64,000 nt of DNA from NCBI GenBank assembly GCA_001822065.1, contig MHPJ01000026.1:5281-69280 (forward strand). The letters are read 5' to 3'. Under the pieces are notes generated by a model that did not search any database, was not told the DNA's origin, and worked only from the letters and a program-made list of their open reading frames with translations. Below, in pieces: positions 18,291 to 18,992 of the stretch (positions within the stretch are counted from its first letter, which is position 1; every line of letters begins with the position of its first letter). This DNA comes from Candidatus Staskawiczbacteria bacterium RIFOXYB1_FULL_37_44. GTDB lineage: Bacteria; Patescibacteriota; Minisyncoccia; Minisyncoccales; Staskawiczbacteraceae. Both the position numbers and the translations under genes were made by a program.

Positions 18291-18328
18291 AATTACGGTT
18301 TTTTGCCGTTCGGCAAAAAACCGTAATT
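18291..18328. repeat. family D 38-bp perfect palindrome (AATTACGGTTTTTTGCCGTTCGGCAAAAAACCGTAATT)
   Basis: Inverted-orientation partner at 18953-18992; related copies at 39795-39830 and 49232-49265. Confidence 0.9.
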
Positions 18329-18406
18329 AGTTGCTTAATTTAAGCTATAAATTTATGTTATAATAAATTATAATATAACGAATTTGCAGGATTTAAAAAG
18401 TTAATT

Positions 18407-18943
18407 ATGGGCGTAAATATAGTTACTACAAAAATAATGTTAAAACTATTGCTCGGAGATTTTGAAAATGGGCCTCCGTTTACAATTGGCGATATTTTTG
18501 ATTTTTTCAAAGAAGACGGGCAAAAAGATGTAAAAGCAGCCATGGCGAAATTAAAAAGAGAAGAATTTGTAAATCAAAAACAAAATTACGAAGGATCTGT
18601 CTTGGTCTCCCTTTCAGAAAAAGGAAAATTAAGGGCATTAAATATGATTTTTAGGAGATTTGATAGCAGAAAAGAGAAGTGGGACGGCAAATGGAGAATG
18701 GTGTCGTTTGATATACCCGACCATTGCACTAAAGGCAGAAAAGCGCTTGTATACAGGTTAAAATCAGCAGGATTTTACGAGTTGCAAAAAAGTTTATTTA
18801 TATATCCGCACGATTGTGAAAAAGAGGTAAAAACGCTTGCCCATTTGTTTAAAATTGAAAAATATATCAGGCTCGGGTTACTGGAATCTATAGATAATCA
18901 GGAAATTCTAATCAAACATTTTAAATTAAGAGAGAAAATATAG
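18407..18943 (+). CDS. winged-helix plus Cas2-like-fold small protein (PaaX-like putative regulator)
   Basis: N-terminal wHTH-like region; C-terminal WRMVSFDIPD...ALVYRLKSAGFYELQKSLFIYP resembles a Cas2/PaaX_C-type fold. Family assignment is tentative. Confidence 0.35.
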   Translation: MGVNIVTTKIMLKLLLGDFENGPPFTIGDIFDFFKEDGQKDVKAAMAKLKREEFVNQKQNYEGSVLVSLSEKGKLRALNMIFRRFDSRKEKWDGKWRMVSFDIPDHCTKGRKALVYRLKSAGFYELQKSLFIYPHDCEKEVKTLAHLFKIEKYIRLGLLESIDNQEILIKHFKLREKI

Positions 18944-18952
18944 AAAGAGAAT

Positions 18953-18992
18953 AAATTACGGTTTTTTGCCGAACGGCAAAAAACCGTAATTT
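18953..18992. repeat. family D 40-bp palindrome, inverted relative to the copy at 18291
   Basis: Centre is GCCGAACGGC here versus GCCGTTCGGC at 18291. Confidence 0.9.

Follow-up and report, generated by a model that had tools for sequence, protein, structure and literature searches.

In Escherichia coli, the regulator PaaX occludes RNA polymerase at its own promoter and so represses itself by steric hindrance (PMC9493321), acting at a site, TGATTC-N27-GAATCA, that forms a symmetric 39-bp span with short half-sites 33 bp apart (PMC9493321). REPtrons, small units in which a RAYT/TnpAREP gene is bordered by palindromes, are characterized by vertical inheritance over active transposition, lineage-specific palindrome types and dispersed copies lying mostly outside genes (PMC8266576; PMC5581495), and >100 copies are given for typical repetitive extragenic palindromes (REPs; PMC2817692). 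Here we describe a unit resembling both, in a 64-kb stretch of DNA (the window, meaning the whole stretch analysed) from Candidatus Staskawiczbacteria RIFOXYB1_FULL_37, an ultra-small groundwater member of the Parcubacteria within the candidate phyla radiation (CPR) with 36.6% GC. A gene for a 178-amino-acid (aa) truncated PaaX-type protein is enclosed there by two perfect palindromes, an arrangement that proves to be the rule for its family.

The cassette and the elements that bear on its expression are as follows.

18291-18328, strandless: upstream palindrome, 38 bp, perfect, AATTACGGTTTTTTGCCG-TT-CGGCAAAAAACCGTAATT, centre GTTC; left edge of the invertible segment
18356-18364, + strand: putative extended -10 element of the cassette gene, TGTTATAAT, matching the TGnTATAAT conserved at homologous loci
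18407-18943, + strand: truncated PaaX-like gene, 178 aa (from the list of open reading frames, ORFs)
18951-18994, strandless: downstream palindrome, 44 bp, perfect, centre GAAC; right edge of the invertible segment
18219-18246, + strand: canonical intrinsic terminator of the upstream gene, GCCTTGTGGCGACACGAGGC followed by T8 (terminator scan)

An earlier note on this DNA, made from the letters alone, had placed the 178-aa ORF between perfect palindromes differing only in a central TT or AA. The sequence confirms this, with the second palindrome extending to 18951-18994 and beginning 8 nt past the stop codon; its core (18953-18992) is the upstream copy save for a central AA instead of TT. The upstream copy is identical over 40 bp to the reverse complement of the downstream copy, and the inverted orientation that the same note reported is therefore literally true in the window, where it depends on one dinucleotide. 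It does not hold as a family rule: by our reading of the locus listing, loci with asymmetric centres comprise about 8 inverted and about 7 direct upstream/downstream pairs. The tetranucleotides flanking the two copies are GAAA/AGTT and AGAG/ATAA. Related palindromes elsewhere, also reported before, are present at 39794-39831 and 49232-49265; the shared core, GTTTTTTGCC-N4-GGCAAAAAAC, is found at four places in the window (0.00 expected from 100 shuffles), and a looser pattern, TTTTTNNCNNNNGNNAAAAA, at five (0.28 expected), the fifth being a degenerate copy at 39904-39923. As single-stranded DNA, the four core copies have folding energies between -16 and -20.5 kcal/mol (z between -7 and -9.4).

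We found that this layout extends across the protein family. The homologue set comprised 80 metagenome loci with proteins 48-81% identical to the window protein; labels such as L075 denote loci in metagenome assemblies or metagenome-assembled genomes (MAGs) compared with the 64-kb window, and genes in them are simple ORF picks. Palindromes were scored with a stem of at least 13, at most one mismatch and a loop of at most 4, within 200 nt of the gene upstream or 80 nt downstream, and the counts depend on these thresholds. An upstream palindrome was present at 52 of 71 homologue loci, compared with 32 of 269 control genes (the other genes of the same loci), and a downstream palindrome, usually 0-40 nt past the stop, at 56 of 74 compared with 15 of 269. 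Both sides were occupied at 42 of the 65 loci with enough flank, against 3 of 269 controls. Every homologue locus inspected by reading carried family palindromes upstream, downstream or on both sides, while the remaining long palindromes of these loci were ordinary terminators (A-tract, GC-stem, T-tract), and essentially no further family copies lay within 5 kb either side of the homologues. A scan for the core in one genome per species pointed the same way: matches lay mainly in Staskawiczbacteria-like MAGs, with outer arms variable yet self-complementary and centres mostly palindromic, and homologues of the window protein directly adjoin the core copies found in other MAGs. Even among distant members, in genomes of 27% and 57% GC, palindromes with a T-run and a GC core adjoin the gene. 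Palindrome flanking is thus a family rule. Two groups of matches from the scan were set aside. Scattered matches in unrelated phyla have arms of 10 bp only and look like chance or terminator-like hairpins; those in a 'Clostridia' MAG, CANQUS01, belong to an unrelated tandem repeat of about 200 bp (45-50% GC). That repeat, in MAG Lapin-021 bin18 (L015, L032, L068 and others), holds the same 24-bp core palindrome and forms many arrays, often at contig ends.

The sites themselves are highly symmetric and have a conserved interior. Their median length is 36 bp (112 sites); 38 of the 112 are perfect, another 36 are asymmetric in the central dinucleotide only, and 60 have a fully symmetric 4-mer centre (summed from the centre counts). 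When 94 distinct half-sites were aligned on the dyad, C at -3 and T at -8 were invariant, positions -10 to -6 held T (or AATTT), and -5 and -13 were mostly G. The inner core, TTTTT-G-n-C, is conserved across the family, and the remaining half-site positions vary by lineage with symmetry kept. The two copies of a pair almost always agree in arms and core, with arms differing between loci, and their centres often differ (ATAT/ACGT, ACGT/TCGA). Similarity of the outer arms tracks identity of the winged-helix half of the protein (rho 0.46, standardized coefficient 0.123) more closely than that of the C-terminal half (rho 0.30, coefficient 0.016); we give no probability for either correlation because the pairs are not independent. 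Mean identity is 73% for the inner core and 68% for the C-terminal domain, which are thus about equally conserved.

The window protein is a truncated PaaX-type regulator, consisting of a winged helix and PaaX_M without PaaX_C. A Pfam search (E up to 1) returned PF20803 PaaX_M ('PaaX central Cas2-like domain'; 70.3 bits, E 1.5e-19, residues 90-159, cutoff 24) and no other family, neither the Y1 domain PF01797 nor PaaX_C. The PaaX equivalog model TIGR02277 scored 44.7 bits against a cutoff of 264.55, over model positions 16-155 of 279, and the Cas2 profile TIGR01573 reached 18 bits, below its cutoff of 24.5. The winged helix spans about residues 1-85 and the Cas2-like PaaX_M domain, with its FDIP and QxSLF motifs, about 90-170; the chain ends at 178. 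In the AlphaFold model (pLDDT 87.6), a helix-helix-helix-beta-hairpin arrangement runs across residues 5-69. The best PDB match of this model in Foldseek was E. coli PaaX (8A39, E 1.8e-5), followed by 3KFW (Rv0674) and 3L09, both spanning the full query length, and its halves also matched MarR/ArsR-type winged helices and Cas2 chains (Cas2 E about 0.15-0.2). A winged helix joined to a Cas2/PaaX-type fold, as suggested from the sequence alone, is borne out by PF20803, by the weak Cas2 matches and by the best PDB match. Searches of the PDB by sequence with the family profile gave nothing below E 0.39, PADLOC gave weak Cas2 matches only, and PHROGs gave nothing useful. The family is large, with 107 clusters at 50% identity at E up to 1e-30 and 2,613 at E up to 1e-10.

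Within the family alignment, conservation is far higher in the C-terminal half than in the N-terminal one. The FDIP residue D102, which closes beta1, is invariant, as are Q127 and S129, and F131 is nearly so; in an alignment to an approximate Cas2 sequence (E 0.10), FDIP (D102) pairs with YDI, and QKSLF with QYSVF. In its C-terminal half the protein appears to share with Cas2 and VapD a ferredoxin-like fold, the Asp at the end of beta1 and QxS(V/L)F. It differs from them in its sub-cutoff Cas2 score, in its fusion to a winged helix and in its setting, which has two perfect palindromes rather than a direct-repeat array and neither cas1 nor a CRISPR array in the 20 kb around it (genes called up to 10 kb on each side). 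The alignment contains no invariant HxH or Tyr pattern of the HUH Y1 transposase type.

Likeness to PaaX extends from protein to site. In PaaX (8A39, 3L09) a winged helix is likewise followed by a Cas2-like PaaX_M dimerization domain, and the 39-bp operator span is similar in length to our palindromes (34-44 bp), of which the upstream copy adjoins the cassette promoter. In most homologues at close or middle distance (about 15 loci), TGnTATAAT lies 10-19 nt 3' of the upstream palindrome; in the window it lies 27 nt 3' of it. By this spacing, the upstream palindrome abuts or overlaps the -35 position. The canonical terminator of the upstream neighbour usually precedes the palindrome at homologous loci. 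In contrast to PaaX, the window protein is only 178 aa long, lacks the PaaX_C effector domain, scores far below the equivalog cutoff and has no paa catabolic genes near its cassette. Its palindromes are perfect and stand on both sides of the gene, its motifs resembling YDI/QxSVF of Cas2 are invariant, and several paralogues occur per genome beside housekeeping genes.

We favour, with moderate confidence, the reading that the palindromes are operators of the encoded, autoregulated dimeric PaaX-like protein and are also substrates for rare inversion. The order palindrome, extended -10 promoter, gene, palindrome would then be a self-contained module of a PaaX-type dimer that has dispensed with the ligand-binding PaaX_C domain. 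Each winged helix would read one of the variable outer arms, which lie some 12-19 bp out from the dyad, and the conserved Cas2-like dimer core and the wing would cover the conserved inner core (T5-6-G-n-C in each half-site). Binding of the upstream site at the -35 position of the cassette promoter would produce autorepression, as in E. coli PaaX, and the downstream site, 0-40 nt past the stop, may close the unit as a roadblock, a looping partner or an operator for the next gene. Binding itself, these contact assignments, the regulatory outcome and the role of the downstream site are predictions from sequence and model. Two copies of one palindrome are direct and inverted repeats at once, and for that reason recombination between them might occasionally invert the cassette. 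The several paralogues of a genome, each with its own arm type, would stand beside housekeeping genes, with arm-matched solitary palindromes serving as extra sites or representing copies that have spread. This operator reading, which the earlier note did not contain, is the simplest and best fitting, and the family-wide association, the invariant half-site positions, the promoter spacing, the tracking of arms with the winged helix and the synteny of the cassettes are consistent with it.

Cassettes occur at a small number of recurrent places. Flank comparison placed paralogues at no fewer than five syntenic sites, in addition to one after RNase J. The five sites are as follows.

S1/MBL: between the genes for ribosomal protein S1 and a metallo-beta-lactamase (MBL) hydrolase, the site in the window
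Map, cassette, TIM: 19 loci, one orientation throughout
cassette, FtsK
EF-G, cassette, EF-Tu
pilin cluster

In view of this synteny, the cassettes are old, vertically inherited residents beside housekeeping genes, with palindromes that have diverged in place. Paralogues within one genome are 65-73% identical to the window protein, and no identical copies were found among them. The earlier idea of a MITE-like (miniature inverted-repeat transposable element) or freely mobile cassette is not supported by these data, as most sites are syntenic, with one orientation kept across wide divergence, and the paralogues are diverged rather than identical. Between fusA (EF-G) and tuf (EF-Tu), a paralogous cassette lies on the same strand as both in an otherwise conserved str-operon string (L142:4700-6110; also L097, L108, L111 and L144).

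The S1/MBL site records both inversion and absence of the cassette. The window orientation is common to L039/L044, L077, L078, L080, L082, L092 and L161, and contigs with an identical protein show one orientation in all five contexts listed. At L075, the closest homologue (79% identity), 18294-18988 matches on the same strand while the flanks match on the opposite strand; the breakpoints are bracketed by the two palindromes, and the arrangement is seen in three independent assemblies. This is the one clean inversion in the close clade. The cassette is also the opposite way round in L104, L147 and L148; in L104 it is reversed along with an unrelated small gene, so that there a larger block differs. 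L119 compared with L128 is a possible second case. At L155 and L156/L157, S1 adjoins MBL directly across a spacer of 176-196 bp, with neither a family palindrome nor a palindrome scar. Cassettes may be lost by recombination. Looking in related genomes for alternative orientations and empty sites, as had been proposed, thus turned up both. A role as recombination substrate holds in that the segment is inverted at the same site in a relative, and in three assemblies; a single clean case does not extend it to programmed inversion. Rare recombination between two 40-bp inverted repeats would suffice for the inversion seen.

The same spacer has other occupants. Within the window it also contains the following gene.

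17912-18193, + strand: Cys-rich 93-aa accessory gene (ORF list), in the S1/MBL spacer and outside the palindrome-bounded unit

It has no significant Pfam family, is found in L075 and is missing in L104 and at the empty S1/MBL sites. Other small genes fill the spacer in L158-L160, and an IS200/RAYT-like Y1_Tnp gene with its own hairpin repeats does so in L163 and L164/L165. The spacer between MBL and rpsA (S1), window 17817-19030, is thus a hot spot found empty or holding a cassette, orphan genes, an ankyrin-repeat gene cluster or a Y1 transposase. The Y1_Tnp genes (L163:2500-3500 and L164:2570-3400) encode 241-258 aa and are accompanied by three copies of their own hairpin (AATTGGGACGTCCGACGTCCCAATT or TATCCGAGAACGGGTCTCGGATA), a REPtron-like module in CPR bacteria; a hairpin at window 46240-46270 is similar to theirs.

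Solitary family palindromes are also present, three of them in the window.

39794-39831, strandless: solo family palindrome, ATAGTAAGTTTTTTGCC-TCGA-GGCAAAAAACTTACTAT, in the 490-bp spacer between a rhodanese gene and a gene for 196 aa, both on the minus strand
39904-39923, strandless: degenerate copy with a core of another type, TTTTTCAC-TCTA-GTGAAAAA, roughly 100 bp away from the 39794-39831 copy
49232-49265, strandless: solo family palindrome, TAGCGGTTTTTTGCC-TCGA-GGCAAAAAACCGCTA, between ABC exporter and cupin genes, both on the minus strand

Each of these types flanks paralogues elsewhere. The 38-mer of 39794-39831 flanks a paralogue in L129, with near-identical copies flanking paralogues in L023 and L126, and the CAC core type of 39904-39923 flanks paralogues in L107, L135, L152 and L153. 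At 49232-49265, where the core lies 7 nt from the ABC exporter stop and 84 nt upstream of the cupin gene, the 34-mer is identical in L062, and the same arm type flanks a paralogue in L036. The outer arms of the two TCGA-centred window solos differ from those of the cassette copies but are self-complementary, and their types (TAGCGG and ATAGTAAG) are those flanking paralogues at the FtsK site elsewhere; a search of the 64-kb window found no paralogue cognate to either solo. In the best-sampled MAG, CAYNHB01, about 14 core matches occur and the arms of the solos match those of resident paralogues. Related genomes differ in which solo insertions they have, and in relatives some lie inside genes: tsaD of L028 contains two in-frame family palindromes, both missing from the window tsaD, L052 and L063 each have one in frame at the same linker position of a membrane protein, and L064 has one in the N-terminal extension of GyrB. 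Within the window, no family palindrome lies inside a gene. A hairpin at 6713-6737 (TTTCTTTTTGCC-A-GGCAAAAAGAAA) has its GCC and GGC blocks 1 nt apart instead of 4, and was not counted in the family on account of this spacing and its position inside a gene, that for PrsW protease (6199-6936, + strand); it may be chance or a decayed family copy. A reading of the palindromes as DNA-uptake sequences was rejected, as the 10-mer half-site by itself is not enriched (29 against 23.5 expected with one mismatch) and has only two extra exact copies.

Several of these observations weigh against an operator role. Most solos lie near gene 3' ends or between convergent genes, and five lie in frame inside genes of relatives, places where operators are unexpected; three of the CAYNHB01 solos are identical 34-mers, which looks like copying. 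The near-perfect symmetry of the sites (38 of 112 perfect), palindromic even at an uncontacted centre, exceeds that of usual operators. Differences between upstream and downstream copies are compensatory within a copy in 43 cases and otherwise in 21, a count biased in its ascertainment because the detection criterion favours paired positions. Such mirrored changes, together with the symmetry, point to a symmetrizing process or a structural requirement beyond read-out by a protein. Template switching within palindromes is one known symmetrizing route. Strict conservation of the Cas2 signature (FDI, QxSLF) is more than dimerization seems to require, and the symmetry, the mirrored changes, the identical solos and the in-frame copies could also point to a catalytic role for the Cas2-like motifs. 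Additionally, we know of no precedent in PaaX biology for a binding site right after the stop codon.

One alternative is a REPtron-like system without an HUH enzyme, in which the palindromes would be repeats of the REP type or like Rickettsia palindromic elements (RPEs), selfish or domesticated, and the flanked gene would encode a factor that cuts, copies or maintains them. The Cas2-like domain would be a metal-dependent nuclease targeted by the winged helix, with perfect symmetry and concerted change arising through repeated re-copying. The cassette has the anatomy of REPtrons and of IS200/IS605 elements, namely a small single-copy gene bordered by palindromes of a lineage-matched type, with further copies dispersed. 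A genuine Y1_Tnp gene with its own hairpins occupies the same S1/MBL spacer in relatives, the solos are polymorphic and sit either in frame within genes or near gene 3' ends, those solo 34-mers that are identical have the arms of a resident paralogue, within-palindrome changes are compensatory, and D102, the Cas2 catalytic position, is invariant along with QxSLF. RPEs are a known case of in-frame palindromic insertions. The solos resemble RPE- or MITE-like palindromes in lying in frame in loops or linkers and in being present or absent between orthologues; they differ in being 32-44 bp rather than about 100-150 bp long, fully symmetric and tied to a flanked gene family. Against a REPtron-like system stand the low copy number (4-5 copies in 64 kb; about 14 core matches in CAYNHB01), the near absence of further copies within 5 kb of homologues and the lack of any known nuclease activity for PaaX_M domains. 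There is no HUH/Tyr Y1 domain and no GTAG or CGTC tag beside either cassette copy, and the palindromes, perfect through the centre and without a bulge, offer no strand or orientation cue of the kind that single-strand HUH enzymes use. The tight coupling of palindrome to promoter and the conserved half-site profile suit a regulator. Overall we regard this system as unlikely, keeping it in consideration because its anatomy equals that of a REPtron and a RAYT-like module sits in the same spacer. A bolder form, in which the winged-helix/Cas2-like proteins are a second, non-HUH class whose Cas2-like dimer cuts or nicks at the dyad by means of D102, and thereby keeps the palindromes symmetric, copies them to new locations, some in frame within genes, and inverts its own cassette, strikes us as rather unlikely.

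Alternatively, the palindromes might be structural elements independent of the protein, DNA cruciforms or RNA hairpins acting as insulators, atypical terminators or stabilizers of mRNA ends, whose likeness is maintained by recombination between copies. The hairpins are very stable, compensatory changes keep their pairing, most solos lie near gene 3' ends or between convergent genes, and the downstream copy stands 0-40 nt past the stop of a gene without another terminator. A terminator scan flags the window cassette palindromes on the minus strand only, where T-rich tails follow both copies. On the plus strand, the tails read AGTTGC... and ATAACT..., the T6 run sits inside the 5' arm and no U-tract follows on the coding strand. 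Canonical terminators are used throughout these genomes, often preceding the upstream palindrome, and copies are tolerated inside tsaD and other genes. On these same grounds generic intrinsic terminators were rejected, in agreement with the earlier view that the palindromes are not ordinary terminators: canonical ones are separate (for example at 18219-18246), and family palindromes stand in frame inside essential genes of relatives. A structural role would also leave unexplained why the palindrome class is nearly confined to one gene family, why core positions are invariant, and why the symmetry extends through the centre, which a hairpin loop does not need. We judge it quite improbable.

A programmed switch similar to Hin or Gin, in which the promoter-bearing cassette would be flipped by a site-specific exchange at the central dinucleotide, altering read-through into S1 or the upstream gene, has a poor fit to the comparative data. 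As with Hin/hix and Gin/gix, a promoter-bearing segment lies between short symmetric sites whose only asymmetry, inverted in the window, is the central dinucleotide. Both orientations of the segment exist among relatives, here known between lineages: the exact segment is inverted in L075 and L166-168 and possibly in L119 compared with L128. A scaffold gap in L004 falls exactly in the upstream palindrome. However, the unit has no recombinase of the resolvase family or of the serine or tyrosine type, and the PaaX_M protein is the sole gene in the segment. Centre orientation is not conserved across the family, many centres being fully symmetric, and a single orientation is kept in the five identical-protein contexts and at all 19 Map/TIM loci. 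The cassette includes neither the S1 leader hairpin nor the S1 promoter, the latter being 30-45 nt away from the nearest palindrome, and ordinary homologous recombination between 40-bp inverted repeats is possible over evolutionary time. A programmed switch is thus very unlikely. The sequence at L004, which might be taken for strain variation in the upstream palindrome, is in fact a run of 10 N in its 5' arm (L004:9885-9900, equivalent to window 18298-18307). Several MAG family palindromes lie within about 50-300 bp of contig ends; these and the L004 gap reflect either assembly hindered by palindromes or heterogeneous junctions.

That the unit is a small autonomous insertion sequence, with the palindromes as terminal inverted repeats and the 178-aa protein as transposase, is highly improbable, given that paralogues are old, diverged and fixed at syntenic sites: a 700-bp unit with identical ends is wholly present or absent at S1/MBL, leaving empty sites without a scar in a hot spot where a Y1 transposase and further small genes are likewise found, but no genome has multiple identical copies, no target-site duplications are visible at the filled sites inspected, and the protein has no transposase fold or motif.

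Pfam already includes the protein family, and PaaX is known to repress itself. Our literature searches found no description of a conserved palindrome-promoter-gene-palindrome module or its co-varying perfect palindromes, of inversion and loss of such a module at one site, or of in-frame solo copies in CPR genomes. CPR bacteria have very few recognizable regulators, and control of their core genes is nearly uncharted. A large family of minimal PaaX-like proteins, each member with a ready-made prediction of its DNA site, may allow regulons to be predicted for uncultured organisms, with paralogues standing beside S1, EF-G/EF-Tu, TIM, FtsK and RNase J. The sites are themselves unusual, being perfect palindromes of 34-44 bp that diverge symmetrically, can invert the enclosed gene and also occur in frame in essential genes. 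If the Cas2 motifs reflect catalysis, the family would connect PaaX-type regulators, Cas2/VapD nucleases and REP-like repeats, and a Cas2-like dimer that cuts at the dyad would give bacteria of very small genome size an analogue of the REPtron based on the Cas2 fold.

Other repeats and genes of the window were also noted. A second hairpin repeat, ATTCCCGC-TTTC-GCGGGAAT(GAC), occurs in 10 copies of about 20 bp each, all on the same strand, against 0 expected (positions 1189, 3598, 17087, 23972, 26094, 28068, 43544, 49202, 52721 and 60613); it is REP-like, distinct from the cassette palindromes and often paired with another hairpin about 50 nt upstream. Two hairpins of this second family lie in frame at 3549-3620 inside the essential gene tsaD (2919-4070, + strand; peptide ...VIPSLTGNPESVHKPLDSRFRGNDIHL...). 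L028 tsaD lacks them, and its two cassette-family palindromes occupy other loops. Invasion of coding DNA by palindromic repeats thus appears common in these genomes. An Rfam search of the window identified a tmRNA (36128-36479, minus strand) and seven tRNA genes, and no other RNA family. Neighbours of the cassette in the window encode, among others, GyrA, the MBL hydrolase, ribosomal protein S1, UvrB and RuvA. GyrA (12785-16504, minus strand) contains an intein (PF14890) within a 1,239-aa product; the intein is missing from several relatives (844-861 aa) and present in L163.

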